From NCBI GenBank assembly GCA_016926065.1, contig JAFGPI010000117.1:1-10847 (forward strand): a DNA stretch of 10,847 nucleotides, given 5' to 3'. The DNA comes from Candidatus Krumholzibacteriota bacterium. GTDB lineage: Bacteria > Krumholzibacteriota > Krumholzibacteriia > Krumholzibacteriales > Krumholzibacteriaceae. A model generated the notes under the pieces. That model was not told the origin of the DNA. It ran no database searches and was given only the letters and a program-made list of their open reading frames with translations. The translations under genes were made by a program, and so were the position numbers. How positions within the stretch are numbered: position 1 is the first letter of the stretch; each line of letters begins with the position of its first letter. This document shows positions 416 through 10,071 of the stretch, one piece after another.

Positions 416-2386
416 ATGGTACAGGGTATAGTCTTGGGTGTTCTTTTCGTCGCCACTTTAATAGCGTTCGGTTTCATAGTACGAACGCTGATCCGGATCT
501 TGCTGCTGGGAAAACCTCAAGGCGGATTCCAGGATCACGGACGCAGGCTCTGGTCGGTTATCGTCTATGTCGCCGGACAGGCGAAAGTGCTCTCCCAGCT
601 GGCCGGCCTGGGACATTTCCTGATATTCTGGGGTTTCATCTTCATTACCCTGGGCACCCTCGAGCATATGCTCGGCATGATCATCCCCGGATTCAGCTAT
701 GCCGTCATATTCGGAGCGACGGTGGCCGGGGTGATCTCGCTGGTGCAGGATATTCTAGCCCTGCTGGTCCTCTTCGCCATCCTGGTCTCTTTCCACCGGC
801 GATTCATCCTCAAGCCGCTAAGGTTGAGGATAGATGATCCGGGGGCCAGGAACGAGGCGGTATTCATCCTGTCCCTGATCTTTATCCTTATCCTGCTCAT
901 GTTCTGCATAAAAGGGATCGGGATCATCAATGGAGAGATCGAGGGAGGGTACGCCCCGGTATCCAGGCTGGTGTCCGGACTGTTCGAGGAAAAGAATATC
1001 GATCTGCACCTGCTGGAATCCGTTCTCGCGTGGATTCATCATCTCATTATCTTCTTCTTTCTGCTGTACGTGCCCTTCTCCAAGCATATCCATATCCTGG
1101 GGGCCATACCGAACATCTACCTGCGCAACCTGGGCCCCGCCGGAACACTTTCGCGCATGGATTTCGAGGACGAATCGGCGGAGAAATTCGGGAACTCGGA
1201 GCTGCGCGATTTCACCTGGAAGCAGCTTCTGGACCTGTACGCCTGCACCGAATGCGGAAGGTGCCAGGCGGCCTGCCCGGCCTTTCTCACCGATAAGCCG
1301 CTCAGTCCCTTCCGGATGATTCACCGGATGAGAGGGCACCTGATGAGCGAGGGACGGGAATTGTTAAAGGCAAAAGAGGCCGAGGGAACCGCGATCATCC
1401 CCGGCACCATGACGGAGGATGAGATCTGGGCCTGCACCACCTGCGGCGCGTGTATGCAGGAATGCCCTCCCTTTATCGAGCACGTGCAGAAGATCGTCGA
1501 TCTGAGGCGGTACCTGGTGATGACGGAGAGCCGTTTCCCCTCGGAGATGCAGCCGGTTTTCAAAAATATGGAAGTCAATTACAATCCCTGGTCCCTGGGA
1601 TTTTCGGCCCGGGCCGACTGGGCCGAGGGTCTCGATATCCCCCTGGCGGCGGAAAAGAAGGAGTTCGATATCCTTTTCTGGGTAGGCTGCGCCGGTTCCT
1701 TCGATTCCCGGGGGCAGAACGTGAGCCGGGCGCTGGCCGGGCTGTTGAAAAAGGCGGGAGTCGATTTCGCCATCCTGGGAACGGAGGAAATGTGCTGCGG
1801 TGAAACCGCCCGCAGGATGGGGAACGAATATCTGGCCCAGACATTGATCGAGGCGAATATAGAGACGCTCAAGAAATATTCTTTCAACCGGATCCTCACT
1901 GCCTGCCCGCACGGATTGAACACCTTCCGGGTGGAGTATCCTCAATTCGGTTACCGGAAGCAGGTGGTGCATCATTCCGAGTTCCTCCTGGAACTGGTCG
2001 AGGCGGGGAGGCTGGAATTGGGATCGCGGGATAGTAAAAAGGTCGCCTATCACGATTCCTGCTACCTCGGCCGCTATAACGATATCCTGGCGCAACCCCG
2101 CGAACTGATCAGAAGGGTCGGGGGCATGAAGCTGAAGGAATTCGGGAGGAACCAGAAACGGTCCTTCTGCTGCGGTGCCGGGGGGGGACGGATGTGGATG
2201 GAGGAGGATATCGGAAAGCGAATCAACGAAGAGAGGGTGGATGAATCGCTCGGGCTCGGGGTCGAGGAAATATTCACCGCCTGTCCGTTCTGCCTGACGA
2301 TGTTCGAGGACGGATTCAAGGCGCGCGACGTGGACAAGATAAAGGTCCTGGATATCGCCGAGCTTATGGCCGAAGCCATTCGATAG
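416..2386 (+). CDS. Fused membrane cytochrome-b-like (NarI/DsrM/HdrE-type, 5-6 TM helices) plus HdrD/DsrK/GlpC-like iron-sulfur oxidoreductase with two CCG domains
   Basis: GGAGG at 407-411, 4 nt before ATG 416. The N-terminal ~230 aa are hydrophobic with several conserved His (HFLIFWGF, AWIHHLIIFFF, SKHIHILG). There are two 4Fe-4S ferredoxin motifs, CTECGRCQAACP and CTTCGACMQECP. Two CCG cysteine-rich domains follow: C-x-CCGETARRMG...ACPHG and SCYLG...FCCGAGGGRMW...ACPFC. Confidence 0.85.
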   Translation: MVQGIVLGVLFVATLIAFGFIVRTLIRILLLGKPQGGFQDHGRRLWSVIVYVAGQAKVLSQLAGLGHFLIFWGFIFITLGTLEHMLGMIIPGFSYAVIFGATVAGVISLVQDILALLVLFAILVSFHRRFILKPLRLRIDDPGARNEAVFILSLIFILILLMFCIKGIGIINGEIEGGYAPVSRLVSGLFEEKNIDLHLLESVLAWIHHLIIFFFLLYVPFSKHIHILGAIPNIYLRNLGPAGTLSRMDFEDESAEKFGNSELRDFTWKQLLDLYACTECGRCQAACPAFLTDKPLSPFRMIHRMRGHLMSEGRELLKAKEAEGTAIIPGTMTEDEIWACTTCGACMQECPPFIEHVQKIVDLRRYLVMTESRFPSEMQPVFKNMEVNYNPWSLGFSARADWAEGLDIPLAAEKKEFDILFWVGCAGSFDSRGQNVSRALAGLLKKAGVDFAILGTEEMCCGETARRMGNEYLAQTLIEANIETLKKYSFNRILTACPHGLNTFRVEYPQFGYRKQVVHHSEFLLELVEAGRLELGSRDSKKVAYHDSCYLGRYNDILAQPRELIRRVGGMKLKEFGRNQKRSFCCGAGGGRMWMEEDIGKRINEERVDESLGLGVEEIFTACPFCLTMFEDGFKARDVDKIKVLDIAELMAEAIR

Positions 2387-2498
2387 CCTAAATGAATTTC
2401 CCGCCTCTCAGGGTATCGTTCCGGGGATTGTCTCCACTTCACCGGCCGGCCCGGCGGCGGACGACATATGTATAGGATCTCCATTAAAAATAGGATGA

Positions 2499-2512
2499 AC
2501 CGGGAAGCCGGT
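2499..2512 (-). terminator. Candidate weak intrinsic terminator for the minus-strand operon. It is a 5-bp GC-rich stem (ACCGG/CCGGT) with a GAAG loop, followed on the minus-strand RNA by UCAUCCUAUUUUUAAU
   Basis: Hairpin seen 3 nt after the TAA stop (complement of 2515-2517) of the last operon gene. A U-rich run lies 7 nt after the stem. The stem is short, so confidence is low. Confidence 0.3.
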
Positions 2513-2514
2513 CC

Positions 2515-3357
2515 TTACACTCCCTTATCAACGGAGGAGGGCTCCGTCATGGTCTCGATGAGGCGGCTGGAGATATGAAAATCGCCCAGCAGGCTGGCCA
2601 GGGAGACCCCTTTGCGCAAGAAGGGAAATTCGATAAGCCGGGGAGGGGCGGCCGGCTCCAGCACCACGTTCTGTATTAAATCCCCGCACTGTTGAATGGC
2701 GTCGGGCAGGGTGGAGATGAATATGTAATCGATCAGGGAAACCGCGTCGGCGGCGTGCAGCACGCACCTCACCTGGTGACCGGGCTGGTTCAAGCGCGCT
2801 ATCCGGTAGGGAGGCTGCCTGCGGGTGAGCAGGTGGCCTACCTTGAGATTGGCCAGGGCGTTCCGGGAGTGGAAGGCCGGAACATAGATACGGAAGGCCC
2901 CGTAACTTTCTATCCTTTCCATCAGATGGTCGATCTCGCCACCGGAAGGGAGCAGCTTGGATTCTATCGTCTCATCGATGAGCCTGGTCCGTTTAACCTG
3001 GAAATCTATCCCCACCGTTTCCACGAAGGGTAATTCCGGTTCCGGCTTTTCCTTCTCCAGCCCGGTGGAGGCGATGATGCGGGTGGCGTCGGTCAGCCGG
3101 GTCAGGGAGCCGCGCATCAGGCTCCGGAGCTTGGCTCTATCTATTTCCACCACCCAGAAGGGAAGCCAGATCGTCTCTTCCGCCTCGCAGTCCGCTGCCT
3201 GGGCGCGGAAAACGGATACCGGGGCGAGTCCTTCCTCGGTTATGATCTGGTAGGAAAAACAGGTTCCGCATTGAAAGGTGACGAACTGTCCCCTAACCGG
3301 GAGTTCCGCTCCGCAGTTGATGCATTTCAGGGGACGCACCGTGATATCTCCGCTCAT
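2515..3357 (-). CDS. Soluble N-terminal zinc-ribbon protein (paralog D of the operon triplet), function unknown
   Basis: ATG directly abuts the stop of the upstream gene (TAG then ATG). SD GGAGGTGA sits 7 nt upstream inside the preceding gene. The N-terminus KCINCGAEL-x11-FQCGTCFS is a CxxC...CxxC zinc ribbon, then the WLPFWVVEIDRAKLRS motif shared with the two upstream genes. No TM segment. Confidence 0.7.
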   Translation of the reverse strand: MSGDITVRPLKCINCGAELPVRGQFVTFQCGTCFSYQIITEEGLAPVSVFRAQAADCEAEETIWLPFWVVEIDRAKLRSLMRGSLTRLTDATRIIASTGLEKEKPEPELPFVETVGIDFQVKRTRLIDETIESKLLPSGGEIDHLMERIESYGAFRIYVPAFHSRNALANLKVGHLLTRRQPPYRIARLNQPGHQVRCVLHAADAVSLIDYIFISTLPDAIQQCGDLIQNVVLEPAAPPRLIEFPFLRKGVSLASLLGDFHISSRLIETMTEPSSVDKGV

Positions 3358-4407
3358 CTACCATTCACCTCCGAACCAGTTCTCCAACCGGCAGGCCATC
3401 CACCGCAGGGGGGGGATGATCTCGCCGTTCTGAACCATGTCGAAAATATAAAGAGCCACCGCCGCTATCGGAACCAGGGGAAACCACGTCCCCGCCAGTA
3501 TCGCCCCCAGGGCCGGAACGAAAAAGAGAGAGCGGACGTTGATCTTTTTACGCAGCGGAAAGTCTCCCCGAATGACGTGGGCGTTGTTGCCGTCTATGGT
3601 GATGGAGTAGATTCTGCCTCCATGCCGGTAACGCAGTATGTACACCGGATAGTAATAGAGGGAGAGATCGTTGCCGAACAGCTTGAAGCGCTGACCGCGA
3701 ACCTTGGAGCCGGGGGGAAAGGTCAACCGGGAAAGATAATTGAATCCATCTTTTTCGGCGTTCTGCATCGGCTTCATGGCCAGGGCTATGGGGAGCTTCT
3801 TTTTCAGGTCGTGATTAAAGATATCCCAGTTGAGAAACTGGGTCTTCAGGGATATTCCCTGCAGGCCCAGATGGCGCAGCGCGCAGGCGGGGGTGCTCCA
3901 ATCGATCTCCTTGAAGATCAGCTTGGAGAAGGGATGATATTCCACCCGGTATGATTTCCGCACCTGGGGTCCGTCCGGTCCGGGAGCGACCACCTCGATC
4001 TCCCTTTTAAAGGCCTTTTCCCCGGCGGCCCATCCCACCAGCCGGCCGTGCATCCTCCAGAAGGGGACATGTATCAGCCGCAGGTCGAGAATGGAGGCGT
4101 GACGCGCCCTGATCCTCCCCTCGGTTTCGCGGGAGAGATAGTGCAGTGCCGCCAAACGGGCCTTTCCGGCGGTGATGGAGGGCTGTAGGATAAATGACCG
4201 GGCGCCCCGGGGCCGGTGGACGTAAAGGGCCGAATGGCAGTATTCGCAGCGCAGGCTCCGCTCTCCCTCGTGCAGGCGGAGGGAACCTCCACAGGTGGGG
4301 CAGCTGATACCGATCGTTTCGGATGATCCGCCGTTAAGGGTAGAGGCGGTGTCGTCCGCTTCCGGACCGATGGCTTCGGAAAGGGTGGTGGTCTCATTTC
4401 CGGCCAT
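3358..4407 (-). CDS. Zinc-ribbon protein with a C-terminal transmembrane anchor (paralog C), function unknown
   Basis: SD AAAGGA is 6 nt before ATG (complement of 4405-4407), which overlaps the upstream gene stop by 14 nt. The zinc ribbon is CPTCGGSL-x11-LRCEYCHS, followed by the IHVPFWRMHGRLVGW motif. The C-terminus is hydrophobic: LFFVPALGAILAGTWFPLVPIAAVALYIF. Confidence 0.7.
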   Translation of the reverse strand: MAGNETTTLSEAIGPEADDTASTLNGGSSETIGISCPTCGGSLRLHEGERSLRCEYCHSALYVHRPRGARSFILQPSITAGKARLAALHYLSRETEGRIRARHASILDLRLIHVPFWRMHGRLVGWAAGEKAFKREIEVVAPGPDGPQVRKSYRVEYHPFSKLIFKEIDWSTPACALRHLGLQGISLKTQFLNWDIFNHDLKKKLPIALAMKPMQNAEKDGFNYLSRLTFPPGSKVRGQRFKLFGNDLSLYYYPVYILRYRHGGRIYSITIDGNNAHVIRGDFPLRKKINVRSLFFVPALGAILAGTWFPLVPIAAVALYIFDMVQNGEIIPPLRWMACRLENWFGGEW

Positions 4408-5098
4408 GAGCTATCCTTTCGCGAACACTGTAGGCGGCAAAACCCAGGGAAGCGGCCGCCCCGATCACCAGGCAGCGTCCCACCCAGCCGTGATCCAATT
4501 TCCCCGCCAGCAGGTAAATGAGCAAAAGGGATAAAGCGGCCAGGATATTGGGGACGCTGAGGGGCGAGGGCCGGGGGGGAGGCAGCTCTTCCGCCTGGAT
4601 GTACAGGCTTTCTCCCAGCACCAATGCTTGCCAGTCCCTTCCGGCCGCCGTGTAGTTCAATCTATAAACCGGCAGGTGGAGCACCTTTTCGGTTTCCGCG
4701 GTAATATTATCGAAAGAAATTATCTTTTCCTCGCCAGCCAGGCTCTCGTCGAAGAAGCAATAATTTCCGGCGGGAGGAAAGGGAAGAGGCCCGGTGCGGT
4801 AAGTGATTCCCGGCGCCGGATAGGCCCTTACCCGTCCCTGCTCGTCCGGGCAGAGCAGATAGGGGAGATAAACAAATTCCACCTTTATGTCCCGGGGCCG
4901 GGCCAGCTTCTTGCCGGTCAGGAAAGATTGCAGGGCATACCGGGCGACCTTATCGTTTCGCTTATGCGGCAGGATCAGGTGCTCGGGTCCGCCTCCCTTT
5001 TCGATGGCCAGGGATGATCCGCAAAAGGAGCAGAAGAGCATCTTCTGCCCCGGGTATATCTCGTTGTCGCCGCCGCAGAGGCTGCATTTAACCTGCAT
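4394..5098 (-). CDS. Zinc-ribbon protein with two C-terminal TM helices (paralog B), function unknown
   Basis: SD AAGGAAG is 3-4 nt before ATG (complement of 5096-5098), which overlaps the SPFH gene stop by 11 nt. The N-terminus is [25 protein letters not shown], a CxxCGG...FCxxCGS zinc ribbon. The VYLPYLL motif follows. The C-terminal hydrophobic helices are [15 protein letters not shown] and [14 protein letters not shown]. Confidence 0.7.
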
Positions 5099-6245
5099 TG
5101 TCTTCCTTTTCCACCTTTTCGCCGCAGCCGGTGCAATATTTGGTTCCCGGGGGCAAAGTAGTCTGGCAATGCGGGCAGGTAAGCCCCGCCCCGAGTTTCT
5201 TGCCGCAGGCCGAGCAGAACTTCGCTTCCGGGGGCAACTCGGCCGCGCAGGACGGACAGCGGTTCATGGTGATCAGCTGGGTTCCGCAATTCTGGCAGAA
5301 ACGTGAATCGGCGATTACCTCGTTGTGGCACCGGGGACACCGGAGCATCTGCACGGTGGCGGTGGTCACGCCCGCTTGCCCCGTATCCACGCTGCGGGCC
5401 AGCATTCCCGGTATCATCATGCCCAGTCCGGCTCCCACTCCCACTCCCATTCCGCCGGCCGCGGCCGCGCCGGCCCCGCCTCCTCCGCCGGAAGAGGCGG
5501 CATCCCCCATGGCCTTGGCGGCCTTGAACTTGAAAAAATCGTCCAGGTTGCCGACCGCCTCCAGGCCGCTCCTTTCGTCGATCATCTTCTGGACCTCGGG
5601 AGGAGGAGTGATCGAGTTGATGAAGAAATCGCTCAACTCCATTCCGTACTTGGAAAAATCGCTTTTCAGGCGGTCCTTGATCTCGACGGCCAGTTCATCG
5701 TAGTACTGCGGCAGATCGAATATGGTATCCAGTTTCTCGCCGAACATATCGTTGATTCTGGCCACCACCACGTCCCGCAGGTATTCACCGATCATTTCGC
5801 TGGAATAAACGCCCTGGGTTCCCACCACCGTGTTGATGAAGAGCACCGGCTCGGTGATCTTGAAGGTGTAAATCCCGAAAGCCCGCAGCCTTACCAGGCC
5901 CAGCTTGCTGTCCTTGAAGGCCACCGGATCCTTGGTGCCCCACTTCTGGTTGAGGAACATCTTCATGTTGATGAAATAGACCTCCGCCCGGAAGGGGCTT
6001 TTAAATCCCCAGGGGAGGGCGAGGATTTTGGTCAGGATCGGCAGGTTCTTGGTGGTCAGGGTGTGCCTTCCGGCGCCGAAGATATCGAGCCCCTTGCCGT
6101 CCTTGAAAAACACGCTACATTGGTTATCGCGGACGATCAACTGGGCGCCCATTTTTATTTCCGCCGAACCCTCCTGGGGAATGCGGTGCGTGATCTCTTC
6201 TCCGCTTTCATCGAACCATTCCAGTACTTCCATGAATTGTGACAT
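5088..6245 (-). CDS. SPFH/Band-7 family protein (COG4260, 'virion core protein'-type SPFH, B. subtilis YdjI-like) with a Gly/Ala-rich linker and a C-terminal triple zinc ribbon
   Basis: SD AGGAGG (complement of 6250-6255) is 4 nt before the ATG. The N-terminus [45 protein letters not shown] and the [16 protein letters not shown] segment are characteristic of this SPFH subfamily. The linker is [27 protein letters not shown]. Three CPxC-x9-10-(F/Y)CxxCG repeats follow. Confidence 0.85.
5091..5339 (-). other. Triple tandem zinc-ribbon tail of the SPFH protein
   Basis: [44 protein letters not shown] and [22 protein letters not shown] are three ~22-aa repeats, each with four Cys. Confidence 0.75.
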
Positions 6246-6511
6246 GCCGCCTCCTGTCGTTATAATTCCCGGCCGGGTATTATTACCAAATTAAGCAAAA
6301 TCTTGTGGTTGCGTGGAACCATAGGTAAACGTGCAAAGTGAATGCCAATCGATGCCGTTTGGGGGAGATGGCGGACCGGTCGGGCTTTCTCCCCGCCGCC
6401 GAACGGAACGGTTGCTATAAGATGTTTATATTCAACTACTTCCACCGGGAGGGCCAGCTGAGGACCGGGGGCGGCCCGGATCGGTCGTAGAGAGAAGATG
6501 TCGGTCCACCG

Positions 6512-6527
6512 GGGGACTTTTGTCCCC
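6512..6527. promoter_or_regulatory. Perfect inverted repeat GGGGAC-TTTT-GTCCCC in the divergent intergenic region, a candidate transcription-factor operator
   Basis: 16-bp palindrome seen directly, centred about 50 bp upstream of the predicted -35 of the plus-strand operon. It is not followed by a U-tract on either strand, so it is unlikely to be a terminator. Confidence 0.35.
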
Positions 6528-6577
6528 TCTCCCGCCGGCGCTGGTAAGTAATTATGCAATTCCCCCCTGCCGCGAAC

Positions 6578-6606
6578 TTGCAGGATACTGAAATTTCCTG
6601 TATAAG
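6578..6606 (+). promoter_or_regulatory. Sigma70-like promoter for the deacetylase-ligase-panD operon: TTGCAG, 17-nt spacer, TATAAG
   Basis: -35 TTGCAG at 6578-6583, exact 17-nt spacer, -10 TATAAG at 6601-6606. The TSS is predicted near 6613, giving a ~55-nt leader. Confidence 0.45.
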
Positions 6607-6668
6607 TATCATTTGCAGTGTTGCCGGATAGAAATTGGGGAGGAAAGGAAATGGCGGAGTAAAGACCG

Positions 6669-7892
6669 ATGGGAAACAAGGGCGTGCCGGTTATCATGTA
6701 TCACGGGGTAAGTCCCGGTCATCCCGGTTGGCTGTGGAACCATCTGCTCACCCCGGTGGAGGTGTTCGAGGCCCAGATGTCCCGGTTGCGGGAGGGGGAG
6801 TGGACCGCCATATCCCTGGCCCAACTGTATTCCCATATGTCCCGGAACGCTCCCCTGCCCGAAAAACCGATCGTGCTGACCTTCGACGACGGGTATCTGG
6901 ACAATTGGGTTTACGCCTACCCGATTCTGAAAAAGTACGGTCTCCAGGGAGTAATCTGGATGACCACCGACTTCATCGATCCGCGGCCCGATGCCCGTCC
7001 CAACCTGGATGACTACTGGAACGGCCGGGTGGCCCGGGGGGAGCTCCGGGGAGAGGGATTCCTGTCCCTGGCGGAAATGCGGAAGATGGTCTCCTCCGGA
7101 CATATCGAGATTCAGAGCCATGCCCGGACCCACACCTGGTATTTCCGCGGTCCCCGGATCGTGGATTTTCACCGGCCGAAAGGAGTGGATGGATACATAC
7201 CGCAGCCCTGGTTGGCCTGGAATGCCGCCCCCCAGAGAAAATTCGCCTATCTAGCCGAAGAGTACGAAACCCTGGTGCCCTATGGATCGCCCATCTACGA
7301 GAACGGAAAATCCCTCCAGGTGAAGAGGTATTTTGAGGATGAGGAGCTCACTCGGCTGCTGGTGGATCATGTGCGCCGGGAGGGAGGAGAGCGTTTTTTT
7401 CTCCGCCCGGGATGGCGTAAGGAACTGGAGAGGCTGGTGGCGGAAAATCCTCCCCGGGGCGGACGCCTGGAAAGCGAGGAGGAATACCGGCGGCGGGTCG
7501 AGGATGAATTGCAGGAATCCCGCCGGATCCTCTCCTCCTCCCTCGGCACCGAGGTGAATTTTCTGTGCTGGCCGGGAGCCGGGATCAATGACACCGCCCT
7601 GCGGCTGGCGTCCGAGGCGGGATATCTGGCCACCACCACCCATTATCTGGACCGGAAAAAGCGCAATTGTTTCGGCGAGAATCCCCGCGAGATCAACCGT
7701 ATCTACTGCGGCAGTCCCTGGTTCTGGAGGGGAAAAAGGATTACCGATCACACCGACCCCGGGTTTTTCCTAAGTACCGTGGAGGCCTTCCGGGGAAACC
7801 GGCTCGCCGCCTGGAAAACGCGTTTATTTAAATTTAAATATCTGGTACACTATTATCTCCTTGGGAGTAAAAATGAGATAGGAGTCCGTTGA
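6669..7892 (+). CDS. Polysaccharide deacetylase (NodB homology domain / CE4 family). It has no N-terminal signal peptide and is probably cytoplasmic
   Basis: The N-terminus VPVIMYHGV is the typical start of a NodB domain. The TFDDGY Asp-Asp motif and the H-A-R-T-H (HxxxH) metal-binding motif are present, and NFLCWPGAG is the C-terminal motif region. The gene ends in an ATGA overlap with the next gene. GGAG lies 9 nt upstream of ATG 6669. Confidence 0.8.
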   Translation: MGNKGVPVIMYHGVSPGHPGWLWNHLLTPVEVFEAQMSRLREGEWTAISLAQLYSHMSRNAPLPEKPIVLTFDDGYLDNWVYAYPILKKYGLQGVIWMTTDFIDPRPDARPNLDDYWNGRVARGELRGEGFLSLAEMRKMVSSGHIEIQSHARTHTWYFRGPRIVDFHRPKGVDGYIPQPWLAWNAAPQRKFAYLAEEYETLVPYGSPIYENGKSLQVKRYFEDEELTRLLVDHVRREGGERFFLRPGWRKELERLVAENPPRGGRLESEEEYRRRVEDELQESRRILSSSLGTEVNFLCWPGAGINDTALRLASEAGYLATTTHYLDRKKRNCFGENPREINRIYCGSPWFWRGKRITDHTDPGFFLSTVEAFRGNRLAAWKTRLFKFKYLVHYYLLGSKNEIGVR

Positions 7893-9616
7893 AAATGTTG
7901 CTGCCCCTTGCCCCGTCCCTGGTCAGAAATGTCATTTATCCGGTTTATAGAGGTTTGAGGGGGGACAAGCTGCTGCAGATCCTGCAGGAACTGGAGGAGA
8001 ACCAGTACCTTTCCCCGGAGGAACTGGAGGATATACAGTGGCGGAGGATGTCCGCCTTCCTTGAATATATCGCCAACCACGTTCCCTATTACAGGGAGCT
8101 TTTTGAGCAATCCGGCTGGAAGGCGGAAGATTTTCAGAATCCGACCGATCTGCTGCGGGTCCCTCTTCTGACCAAGGAGATTATCCGCCGGGAGGGAAAG
8201 AGCCTGGTCACCACCGATCCTCTCATCAAGGGGTACGACTCCAACACCGGAGGTTCAACCGGAGAGCCTCTCTATTTCAAGATAGCCAATTCCACCAGCC
8301 CCTACCGCCGGGCCAACACCCAGAGATGCTACCGCATGTGCGGGATAGAGATCGGGGAGAAGCAGGCCTATGTCTGGGGTTTTCCCTTCAATATTCCCCG
8401 GAAGGAGAAGATCAAGTCTTCCTTCCGGAATTATTTCAACAATATCACCTACCTCTCCTCTTTCAATATGTCGGAGCAGGCGATGCGCGACTACGCGCTC
8501 AAGTTAAAGAAATTCAAACCGGCGGTGGTTATCGGATATCCTTCCGCGGTGACCCTTTTCGCCGAATTCTGCCGGGATAATCAAATATCGGGGATCGAAC
8601 CCCGGGCGGTGATTTCCAGCGGGGAGAAAATGTATCCGCCCCAAAGGGAGGTGCTGGAGGAATTCTTCGGCTGCCCGGTCTTCGACCGCTACGGCAGCAA
8701 CGAATTCGCCAATGTGGCGCATGAATGCGACCGGCACAAGGGACTGCACGTTTTCAACGACCTGCTCTACGTGGAGGTGCTGCACGAGAACGGTAGGCCG
8801 GCCGGCCCCGGGGAAGTGGGGGAAATAGTAATAACCGATTTTCTTAACCGTTTCATGCCTTTCGTCAGGTACCGCACCGGGGACATGGCGGTTCAAACCG
8901 ACAGAACCTGTGAGTGCGGCCGGGGCCTGCCCCTGCTGGAACGGATCGAGGGTAGGACCTTCGATACGGTGATGACCAACGACGGAAGATTCATCGGCGG
9001 GTACTTCTGGACCTATCTTTCCCGGGTGGTCCCGGGAGTGAAGCAGTTCCAGGTCGAGCAGAAGCAGAGGAACACGGTGACCTTCCGGATCGTGCCGGGC
9101 CCGCAGTGGGAAGACCAATACCAGGAAAGGATAATAAAGGAAATAGTGGAGAACATGGGCCCGGGAACCAAGGTGAATTTCGAAAAGGTCGCCGAGATTC
9201 CCCTCTCCCCGGCCGGTAAATTCAGATTCATCCTTTCCAAGGTGGAAGAAAGGATGGTGGTGAAGTCGAAGATCCATAAGGCCAGCGTGACCGGCGAGGA
9301 CCGCGAGCGGATAGACTGCATTGTAGTGGATGAGGAAATTCTGGAATTGAGTAATATCGCTCCCTGCGAAAGAGTGCTGATAGTGGACAACGATAACGGC
9401 GCCCGGGTGGAAGCTTTCGTGGTGAAAGGAGAAAGGGGCAGCCAGGAGATAGTAACCTGCGGGGGGGTGGCCCAGCACATTCACGCCGGAGACGAGGTTA
9501 TCATCATGGCCTTTACCTGGTCGGAGGAAACCCACGGACACTTTACCAATATCCTGGTGGACGAATCGAACAAGTTCGTTCGCTACCTTACCGAAAAGGC
9601 GGGGGATAAAATATAG
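7889..9616 (+). CDS. PaaK/CapK/coenzyme-F390-synthetase-family adenylate-forming ligase (aa 1-455) fused to a C-terminal PanD-like double-psi beta-barrel domain (aa 456-575) that lacks the catalytic residues
   Basis: The N-terminus SPEELEDIQWRRMSAFLEYIANHVPYYRELFEQSGWKAEDFQNPTDLLRVPLLTKEII is typical of PaaK-like enzymes. GGSTGEPL is the phosphate-binding motif. The C-terminal 120 aa align gaplessly with the downstream PanD. The start overlaps the deacetylase stop (ATGA). Confidence 0.85.
   Translation: MKMLLPLAPSLVRNVIYPVYRGLRGDKLLQILQELEENQYLSPEELEDIQWRRMSAFLEYIANHVPYYRELFEQSGWKAEDFQNPTDLLRVPLLTKEIIRREGKSLVTTDPLIKGYDSNTGGSTGEPLYFKIANSTSPYRRANTQRCYRMCGIEIGEKQAYVWGFPFNIPRKEKIKSSFRNYFNNITYLSSFNMSEQAMRDYALKLKKFKPAVVIGYPSAVTLFAEFCRDNQISGIEPRAVISSGEKMYPPQREVLEEFFGCPVFDRYGSNEFANVAHECDRHKGLHVFNDLLYVEVLHENGRPAGPGEVGEIVITDFLNRFMPFVRYRTGDMAVQTDRTCECGRGLPLLERIEGRTFDTVMTNDGRFIGGYFWTYLSRVVPGVKQFQVEQKQRNTVTFRIVPGPQWEDQYQERIIKEIVENMGPGTKVNFEKVAEIPLSPAGKFRFILSKVEERMVVKSKIHKASVTGEDRERIDCIVVDEEILELSNIAPCERVLIVDNDNGARVEAFVVKGERGSQEIVTCGGVAQHIHAGDEVIIMAFTWSEETHGHFTNILVDESNKFVRYLTEKAGDKI
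9254..9613 (+). other. Degenerate aspartate 1-decarboxylase (PanD)-like domain inside the ligase ORF
   Basis: KSKIHKASVTGEDRERIDCIVVDEE...NGARVEAFVVKGERGS...GDEVIIMAF aligns without gaps over 84 positions to PanD at 9712-10071. The Gly-Ser pyruvoyl precursor pair is replaced by Asp-Cys, and the Tyr of TY(V/A)I is replaced by Phe (EAFVV). Confidence 0.75.
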
Positions 9617-9711: not shown

Positions 9712-10071
9712 ATGAAACGCCTATTATTGAAATCGATGATTCTCAGGGCTACCGTCACGCAGGCTGATATCCAGTATGTGGGAAGCATAACCATTGACGA
9801 GGATCTTATCGATCAAGCTAATCTCAGTGAGCATGAAAATGTGCATGTGGTCGACCGTACCAACGGCAAGAGGTTGGAAACCTACGTGATCAGGGGGGAA
9901 CGCGGTACCGGGGTTATCTGCATGAACGGCGCTGCCGCCCACCTGATCAACCAGGGTGACCAGGTCGATATCATGGCATTTTCCTGGTCCACCGGTAAGG
10001 CCAATCCCATATTCATTCAGGTCGATGAGAATAACCGGTTTCTTAGATGTCTGGATGAAAAGAGTCTTTAA
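9712..10071 (+). CDS. panD: Aspartate 1-decarboxylase (pyruvoyl-dependent), making beta-alanine from L-aspartate
   Basis: AGGAGG at 9699-9704, 7 nt before ATG. The sequence LKSMILRATVTQADIQYVGSITIDEDLID...NGKRLETYVIRGERGTGVICMNGAAAHLINQGDQVDIMAF keeps Lys9, the Gly24-Ser25 cleavage/pyruvoyl site, Arg54, Thr57 and Tyr58 equivalents of E. coli PanD. Length is 119 aa. Confidence 0.85.
   Translation: MKRLLLKSMILRATVTQADIQYVGSITIDEDLIDQANLSEHENVHVVDRTNGKRLETYVIRGERGTGVICMNGAAAHLINQGDQVDIMAFSWSTGKANPIFIQVDENNRFLRCLDEKSL

Follow-up and report, generated by a model that had tools for sequence, protein, structure and literature searches.

The locus described here raises the question of whether an SPFH protein and three zinc-ribbon neighbours, encoded together with no PspA in view, are a relative of the Bacillus pspA-ydjGHI (pspA-samGHI) operon or a system of another kind. 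The Bacillus operon is induced by envelope or alkaline stress (sigma-W) and, to our knowledge, holds the only SPFH/YdjG pair to have been studied experimentally, a pair that has been regarded as an accessory, in Firmicutes, to the stress response of PspA (ESCRT-III-like). The four genes, here called A to D, lie on the minus strand of a 10,847-nucleotide stretch of Krumholzibacteriota DNA, the whole of which is referred to below as the window; all gene and domain positions are given on that strand.

The ORF map confirmed four closely packed ORFs, A (385 aa, 5088..6245), B (234 aa, 4394..5098), C (349 aa, 3358..4407) and D (280 aa, 2515..3357), and verified the coordinates and junctions of the original prediction throughout: the overlaps are 11 nt (A/B) and 14 nt (B/C), and D starts with its ATG immediately behind the TAG of C. 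The expectation that each gene would have its own Shine-Dalgarno sequence held as well, SD-like purine runs being found 5' of all four starts (AGGAGG, GGAAAAGGAAG, AAAGGA and GGAGGTGA), with a spacing of 6 nt between the AGGAGG and the start codon of A. A consensus scan picked out, as a pattern match only, a terminator-like hairpin and T-run immediately downstream of D's stop codon on the same strand (2497..2514; 7-bp stem with 5 GC pairs, tail ATCCTATTTT). At the other end, a divergent intergenic region (6246..6668), delimited from the ORF map and the sequence, separates A from a polysaccharide deacetylase gene and is presumed to be the promoter region of the operon; the scan for that promoter found no minus-strand sigma-70 match. 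A to D are a four-gene operon.

Gene A had been placed in a YdjI-like SPFH subfamily and credited with three C-terminal zinc ribbons, and both assignments stood. The best Pfam stretch, residues 27-228 (5562..6167), matched Band_7_1 (PF13421) with 214.3 bits (E=1.9e-63, cut-off 24), and BLASTP aligned the full length of A with Bacillus YdjI (6e-32, 25% identity), the alignment taking in the linker and one ribbon. The ribbon tail matched Zn_Ribbon_1 three times and DZR twice in Pfam, and contains three CxxC...CxxC units at Cys303-374 (5124..5339). By these alignments, A is homologous to YdjI/SamI and belongs to the same SPFH subfamily (Band_7_1). Searching PDB sequences with the A profile gave matches to zinc-ribbon regions only, and the Geobacter ortholog is 53% identical to A. 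Ribbon number varies among A-like proteins (three, two and one in 55, 17 and 1 proteins, respectively). The idea of one A ribbon per partner protein was rejected, as locus L004 has one ribbon together with B, C and D, and locus L013 has three ribbons together with a single fused partner.

Hydropathy analysis revealed no N-terminal TM segment in A. The sole hydrophobic stretch in the protein falls in a Gly-rich segment upstream of the ribbons (residues 246-281), a Gly-zipper-like linker in which M266, G267, G269, G271, A272, G273, G275, P279 and G280 are invariant in 8 orthologs and for which the Kyte-Doolittle value, 1.51 over 19 aa, is borderline. Judged by its conservation and hydropathy, this Gly/Ala-rich linker (residues ~252-281, 5403..5492) may contact the membrane.

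As predicted, B, C and D each begin with an N-terminal zinc ribbon of the CxxCG(G/A)...CxxC type, one apiece (B, Cys5-26; C, Cys36-57; D, Cys12-33), that of C starting at residue 36 behind a disordered N-terminal tail; the ribbons of the locus thus number six (3+1+1+1) and not the seven first counted. The motif said to follow the ribbon in all three is real and conserved within each family (the invariant residues are P79 for B, P115-F116-W117 for C and P66-F67-W68 for D), but it lies 30-55 residues past the last cysteine rather than 35-45. The view of B, C and D as diverged tandem paralogs proved right for B and C and wrong for D. When the B and C families were compared by hhalign they matched over their full length (98.5%, E=2.8e-15), and the B profile matched YdjG itself (92.8%, E=3.9e-7). 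The comparison with YdjG was made by sequence, the Bacillus operon having been retrieved via a published ydjG primer. A broad YdjG-family HMM, which is a profile of 99 remote relatives built from relatives of C, scored 218.6 bits with C, 52 bits with B and 78.9 bits with YdjG, where HMM positions 7-282 aligned nearly end to end with YdjG residues 52-337. The bulk of B and C is a YpeB/PepSY-like domain, so that they combine the N-terminal zinc ribbon and the YpeB-related (PepSY/NTF2-like) domain of the YdjG/SamG family. These profile matches identify B and C as true paralogs that both belong to the YdjG/SamG family; against PDB sequences their profiles returned ribbon noise only.

B is a short representative, assigned from hhalign, the broad family HMM and hydropathy, in which the ribbon (5021-5086) is followed by the YLPY strand and a C-terminal TM hairpin (4409-4567). 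C is of full length, with its ribbon at 4237-4302, two YpeB/PepSY-like alpha+beta modules at 3565-4170 and C-terminal TM helices at 3427-3537. C-terminal hydrophobic segments are thus present in B (residues 178-230) and C (residues 291-326) and absent from D by hydropathy, in keeping with the claim that two of the partners have TM anchors. Since D has no TM segment, it was left out of the YdjG/SamG family. D is a soluble zinc-ribbon protein whose N-terminal ribbon and LPFW strand (3142-3324) are all that hhalign aligned with the other two (81% versus B, 32% versus C), and BLASTP found no significant match between D and either of them. The remaining ~200 residues of D are a separate, D-specific alpha/beta domain (2533-3135) with a predicted fold unlike that of B or C. 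On all three counts D was rejected as a full paralog. Beyond its N-terminal module D had no structural neighbour in the PDB, and its profile gave ribbon noise only against PDB sequences.

The description of the locus as 'ydjGHI-like' therefore holds in part: A is of the YdjI type and B and C are YdjG homologs, but there is no YdjH/TPM-type partner, so the locus consists of YdjI- and YdjG-like components only. YdjH itself matches TPM_phosphatase (1e-23); Pfam gave no TPM match in B, C or D, and no ORF in the window or in related loci matched YdjH. The remark that no PspA was in view was also correct, as pspA (PspA_IM30) is absent both from the window and from about 90 related loci; these belong to several phyla, and neither pspA nor a TPM gene lies within 6-10 kb of any of them.

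Conservation of the cassette extends over Krumholzibacteriota, Geobacter sulfurreducens (locus around AAR34411.1), where all four genes are present, and other metagenomic lineages, and the many homologs of all four genes together with their synteny across phyla place this far beyond chance. Thus a fortuitous adjacency, with B, C and D from unrelated characterised families and other neighbours in relatives, was not what we found, since the adjacency of A with its partners is conserved. Fifty A-like SPFH loci extend far enough downstream to be scored; 34 of them have a YdjG-family gene next door, and in 26 of those 34 the neighbour is a C-D fusion; in the other 16 of the 50 a downstream partner was undetected. 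C and D are more often one protein in the metagenome sample, usually without a TM segment. Of 25 fused C-D partners in two-gene systems, 23 have no TM segment at all, so the partner cannot serve as a membrane anchor in every system, an idea that we had entertained. The window locus represents one version of a PspA-free module that is widespread and occurs in several phyla, and the suggestion of an 'expanded relative' of the Bacillus operon had to be dropped: there is no lineage-specific expansion, and C and D are often fused elsewhere.

These results make it fairly probable, in our judgement, that A to D form a PspA-independent relative of SamI/SamG (YdjI/YdjG) that acts as an envelope-stress scaffold or sensor. 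A would be an SPFH scaffold, either soluble or attached peripherally, that oligomerises beneath the membrane, and B and C, each with a cytoplasmic ribbon and YpeB/PepSY-like domain(s), would be held at the inner membrane face by a C-terminal TM hairpin, from where they may tether and position A. D, which many other lineages carry as a fusion with C, would be a soluble third subunit bound in the same complex, and the four proteins jointly would serve as a scaffold or sensor of membrane or envelope perturbation. We infer this complex formation, topology and stress-related function from homology with B. subtilis and from the gene fusions. Counting against such a mechanism are the TM-less fused C-D partners, the 16 of 50 A-like loci without a detectable downstream partner and the fact that the bacterial two-hybrid link to YdjI in B. 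subtilis runs via YdjH, which has no equivalent in the window. That A builds a hetero-oligomeric SPFH cage with three zinc-ribbon clients and cargo is speculation. We also entertain, more tentatively, an autonomous, phylum-spanning system with a cytosolic core, as the lack of a TM in most fused partners would suggest, in which PspA and SamH would be late additions of the Bacillus lineage, the D domain the actual effector or sensor, and the split B+C+D form with its two anchors derived.

The stress scaffold proposed here has to be weighed against a conventional Psp-type system, in which PspA, and perhaps a TPM protein, would be encoded elsewhere and A to D would recruit the distal PspA to the membrane as Bacillus YdjGHI does. 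The precedent is that B. subtilis YdjI recruits PspA, that its membrane foci depend on YdjG/YdjH and that PspA foci require YdjI (PMC8581546). However, the two-hybrid link to YdjI in that organism went through YdjH (PMC8581546), and this bridge to PspA is absent from the window. Moreover, part of the SamGHI phenotype in Bacillus does not require PspA, and the absence of nearby pspA and TPM genes from all of the about 90 loci indicates that there is no selection for linkage, so that we regard this explanation as unlikely. The cassette might instead be an accessory of the adjoining exopolysaccharide/envelope genes (deacetylase, CapK/PaaK-like ligase, PanD), such as a scaffold for polysaccharide export or modification, as it is flanked, both in the window and at the Krumholzibacteriota loci L001, L003 and L005, by divergent deacetylase, ligase-PanD and PanD genes. 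That synteny is limited to one phylum, however, the neighbours being QueH, DUF2905, phasin and UbiB in Geobacter, aconitase at L013 and DUF362 at L014, and the flanking genes are divergently transcribed rather than co-operonic, which makes such a role improbable.

It seems very improbable that the locus is an anti-phage defence or mobile-element system built from a 'virion core protein-like' SPFH protein and zinc-ribbon sensors, a reading encouraged by how COG4260 proteins were annotated historically and by weak PHROG matches confined to the zinc-ribbon tail. PADLOC returned nothing for A, B or D and two weak matches to the ribbon stretch of C (E 0.0096 and 0.042), the PHROG matches were at the level of the ribbons, bar a weak 'lipoprotein' match on part of the SPFH domain, and the cassette has a stable chromosomal position, syntenic within the phylum, with housekeeping neighbours and an unremarkable GC content; a defence or phage origin was rejected on these grounds. 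We give as little credence to B, C and D being nucleic-acid-binding or transcription proteins functionally unrelated to A. Such a role would fit the weak, ribbon-only matches to RpoP, PriA CRR, S27e and the A2L ribbon, the JGI name 'RNA polymerase subunit RPC12/RpoP' and a TFIIB-type ribbon call for YdjG, but these matches span ~25 residues and lie under the family cut-offs, apart from A2L_zn_ribbon in B, which passes just above it in Pfam (28 residues, 24.3 versus 22.9 bits). B and C, moreover, are membrane-anchored and consist mostly of a YpeB/PepSY-like domain, and their tight linkage with the SPFH gene across phyla, together with translational coupling, favours a shared function.

SPFH-YdjG pairing is thus widespread without PspA and without a TPM protein, and D represents a further conserved partner domain, which is fused to a YdjG-like protein in many lineages. 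The question accordingly moves from PspA recruitment to the role of the SPFH/YdjG/D core itself, for which Geobacter sulfurreducens is a tractable genetic host because it has the full four-gene cassette. Three families that were so far hypothetical or mis-named 'RpoP/RPC12' are placed by this analysis, B and C gaining a family assignment and D an operon context. Our literature search on PF13421/COG4260 and on YdjG/SamG outside Firmicutes gave nothing beyond the Bacillus/PSP work.

Among known systems, the classical SPFH proteins (HflK/C-FtsH; flotillin FloA/FloT with NfeD/YuaF/YqiJ; stomatin-NfeD) likewise pair a scaffold, which presumably oligomerises at the membrane, with a dedicated membrane-partner gene. 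A differs in having no N-terminal TM or hairpin anchor and in belonging to PF13421 rather than to the PF01145 core families, and its partner is YdjG-like, neither an NfeD nor a protease; the neighbourhood holds no gene for FtsH or NfeD. The PepSY-domain proteins YpeB and YpmB, with which no sequence similarity is detectable, have extracytoplasmic domains, whereas the YpeB-like domains of the window are predicted to be cytoplasmic because they lie between a cytoplasmic zinc ribbon and the TM. In the two-gene modules (e.g. L013, L015-L079), the gene for an A-like SPFH ortholog (44-68% identity) precedes one whose product joins a C-like ribbon/YpeB-like half to a D-type half; there C and D form a single polypeptide, usually TM-less, and B is absent, whereas in the window C and D are split, C has a TM anchor and the anchored paralog B is extra. 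[quoted passage not shown] Unlike that operon, the locus, which belongs to a different host phylum (Krumholzibacteriota, with the cassette also in Geobacter and others), has neither pspA nor YdjH/SamH (TPM), and its order is reversed with the SPFH gene first. It has three ribbons in A versus one in YdjI, two YdjG paralogs with one ribbon each where YdjG has two, the second of which aligns with the lone ribbon of B/C, and a soluble D with a domain missing from the Bacillus operon. Rather than a new kind of system, the locus is a variant of a membrane-stress system that is already known.

Four consecutive minus-strand genes, overlapping or abutting and each with its own SD-like element, had been predicted, and the ORF list and sequence bore this out. 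The SPFH protein A (5088-6245, 385 aa) is followed by three zinc-ribbon proteins, B (4394-5098, 234 aa), C (3358-4407, 349 aa) and D (2515-3357, 280 aa), all on the minus strand; the window belongs to a Candidatus Krumholzibacteriota MAG, with locus tags JXB45_06165-06175. The overlap is 11 nt between A and B and 14 nt between B and C, the stop codon of C adjoins the start of D, and the SD-like element upstream of all four starts is purine-rich. A terminator-like hairpin with a T-run (2514-2497, minus strand) starts 1 base past the D stop codon. Upstream of A lies a divergent intergenic region of 423 nt, where a scan for a consensus promoter on the operon strand found none. A strong plus-strand sigma-70-like match (6237-6266; GTGACA-16-TATAAT, 11/12), which is a match to consensus only, overlaps the first codons of A and lies about 400 nt upstream of the start of the divergent deacetylase gene; the number of such matches in the surrounding region was no higher than the shuffled expectation.

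Protein A matched Pfam Band_7_1 (PF13421) with 214 bits, as well as Zn_Ribbon_1/DZR, and the 12 cysteines at its C-terminus form three CxxC...CxxC ribbons. With one N-terminal ribbon each in B, C and D, the cysteine positions give six ribbons, not the seven of the original prediction, and the spacing it gave for the motif following the ribbon was also inexact. The pspA-ydjGHI operon of a B. subtilis-group genome was located via a published ydjG primer, and Pfam matches confirmed its four products: PspA_IM30 (PspA), a TFIIB-type ribbon (YdjG), TPM_phosphatase (YdjH), and Band_7_1 together with a ribbon (YdjI). The alignment of A with this YdjI (E=6e-32) spans SPFH domain, low-complexity linker and one ribbon, which by sequence places A in the YdjI family. 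An invariant Gly-zipper-like segment of A (5403-5492, minus strand; residues ~252-281) may be a membrane-contacting element; among 73 A-like proteins from metagenomes, 28 have the GxGxGxGxGxG pattern in strict form.

For B, C and D, searches of Pfam, NCBIfam, PADLOC and PHROGs gave no match beyond weak ribbon-only ones. The relatives found by a word-indexed protein search (82, 135 and 20, respectively) came almost exclusively from metagenomes and Krumholzibacteriota MAGs; very few had a Pfam domain on record. Profile-profile comparison of the B and C families (98.5%, E=2.8e-15, 217 columns) covered the full length including the TM region, with a large insertion in C relative to B, and shows that the two are homologous throughout. 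Hydrophobic C-terminal segments were found in B and C by a sequence scan that detected none in D. The alignment of D with B was confined to the ribbon and the LPFW strand next to it (80.9%, E=1.2e-5, 72 columns), and the match of D to C was weaker still (32%). When the C family was used for an exhaustive profile search, 1,594 representatives were found at E<=1e-3, 255 of them at E<=1e-10; Geobacter sulfurreducens AAR34411.1 is one of the members. The typical member (320-380 aa) has a CPxCGG ribbon at the N-terminus, a 'hxhPFW' strand ~75 residues past it, then another strand of similar type, and a C-terminus with one or two TM helices. In one variant (P0276, 558 aa; cluster member P0404, 721 aa) the C-like module, at ~238-502, comes after a protein-kinase fragment and an AAA_16 ATPase domain, and may be a signalling fusion of a YdjG-like module or an artefact of assembly or gene calling.

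The connection to YdjG was examined with a broad-family HMM built from 99 remote C-like proteins, none of them from Bacillus or from the window. C scored 218.6 bits, B 52 bits and D 17 bits, and the Geobacter counterparts of B and D (B' and D') scored 63 and 24 bits, whereas A, YdjH, YdjI and PspA were not matched. The absence of a match for A, with its three ribbons, shows that the score does not come from ribbons alone. YdjG was also matched by the B-family profile, at 92.8%, and on these comparisons B and C can be assigned to the YdjG family.

All four further distinct Krumholzibacteriota loci that were examined (L001, L003, L004 and L005) keep the order A-B-C-D, as do metagenomic loci L014, L023 and L035 and the genome of G. 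sulfurreducens, where each gene has an ortholog: that of A is 53% identical, B' and D' aligned by hhalign at 99.1% and 99.0%, and C' was found at 5e-33 in the exhaustive profile search and scored 254 bits against the broad-family HMM. In L023 (6001-7152) the A-like SPFH gene is divided between neighbouring ORFs of 218 and 163 aa that jointly span the whole profile, a split that reflects a frameshift, a pseudogene or a sequencing error of that contig. Metagenome contigs scanned with an alignment of A orthologs gave 80 loci (44-68% identity), and partners were counted at the 50 that continue for 900 bp or more past the end of the SPFH gene. A YdjG-family gene lay immediately downstream in 34/50, and in 26 of these 34 it encoded a single protein of 410-540 aa matching both the C-like and D profiles. 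Such C-D fusions also made up ~20 of the top 150 C-family matches, and the D-specific C-terminal domain was found in the fusions as well as in the fourth gene of the Krumholzibacteriota and Geobacter cassettes. Such fusions count as Rosetta-stone evidence for joint action of C and D. No immediately downstream partner was seen at 16/50 loci, although one of these (L065) has a C-D-type gene ~3.5 kb further on, beyond the span counted as adjacent; the linkage of SPFH gene and partner is therefore strong but not obligatory. An Anaerolineae contig (L012, 797-7681) carries two tandem copies of a B-like gene (266 and 259 aa) together with a C-D fusion (604 and 609 aa) whose TM segments are internal; the 10 kb covered contains no SPFH gene, and the contig begins just upstream.

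No ORF of the window or of the fetched loci matched Bacillus PspA or YdjH, and no PspA_IM30 or TPM Pfam match was found among neighbours of related loci. A distal pspA may lie elsewhere in the genome, of which the window covers 10.8 kb, but zero linkage over ~90 loci argues against PspA dependence. That the cassette serves the adjacent polysaccharide genes is unlikely, as synteny with those genes is restricted to Krumholzibacteriota, and readings as a defence system or as nucleic-acid-binding proteins are supported by nothing more than ribbon-level similarity.

The neighbouring genes have features of their own. A PgaB-like polysaccharide deacetylase (6669-7892, plus strand), divergent from A, is followed by a PaaK/CapK-like adenylate-forming enzyme with a fused C-terminal PanD-like domain (7889-9616, plus strand) and a standalone PanD (9712-10071, plus strand). 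Synteny between this block and the cassette extends to L001, L003 and L005, where the PanD pair is also conserved, but not beyond the phylum. Canonical PanD has a Gly24-Ser25 processing site and Lys9/His11. The standalone copy keeps 'VGSITID', and in the alignment M and L replace the K and H of the 'KSKIH' of the fused domain, which itself has 'IDC' at the position of 'GS'. Degeneration thus seems to affect complementary sites in the two copies, a hint of a hetero-oligomer. Convergent with D, and absent from the cassette of other genomes, is a gene for a 656-aa protein (416-2386, plus strand), in which a hydrophobic N-terminal half with a weak NarI-like match is joined to a two-[4Fe-4S] ferredoxin region and a pair of CCG domains; it is predicted to be an HdrD/DsrK/TfrB-like membrane-bound oxidoreductase.

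The B. subtilis protein YdjI/SamI is soluble, with membrane foci that require YdjG and YdjH, and PspA foci in turn require YdjI (PMC8581546). A 2026 preprint describes SamG as the membrane anchor of SamI and SamH as a signalling partner restrained by SamI, with a developmental phenotype that does not need PspA. By homology, A would oligomerise beneath the membrane, tethered by the C-terminal TM hairpins of B and C, whose ribbon and YpeB-like domains would face the cytoplasm, and D would enter the complex via C. Hydrophobic segments between the halves of some fusions (L012/P0272, P0280, and the L016 and L018 partners) are consistent with this topology. The model is limited by two observations: TM segments are absent from 23/25 fused partners in two-gene systems, and anchoring is therefore not the partner's sole role; and the YdjH bridge of the Bacillus two-hybrid data has no counterpart in the locus. 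Our confidence is high for the family assignments and moderate for this mechanism; family membership and synteny are demonstrated, whereas we infer the complex, its topology and a stress function, and consider the explanation as a whole reasonably probable.

The closest known system is pspA-ydjGHI/samGHI, with A, B and C matching its YdjI and YdjG families, and to this extent the original ydjGHI-like reading is supported; for YdjH it is not. Unlike the Sam/Psp operon, the locus has neither pspA nor a TPM protein and so cannot be classed as that system. In the literature searched, coupling of Band-7 and YdjG proteins is described only as the Firmicutes pspA context. New here is a PspA-free, TPM-free form of the SPFH/YdjG pairing spread across phyla, with a duplicated anchored partner (B and C) and a D domain frequently fused to the YdjG-like protein. 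The locus is a form of this pairing, not a class of its own, and should be of interest to SPFH and Psp research.
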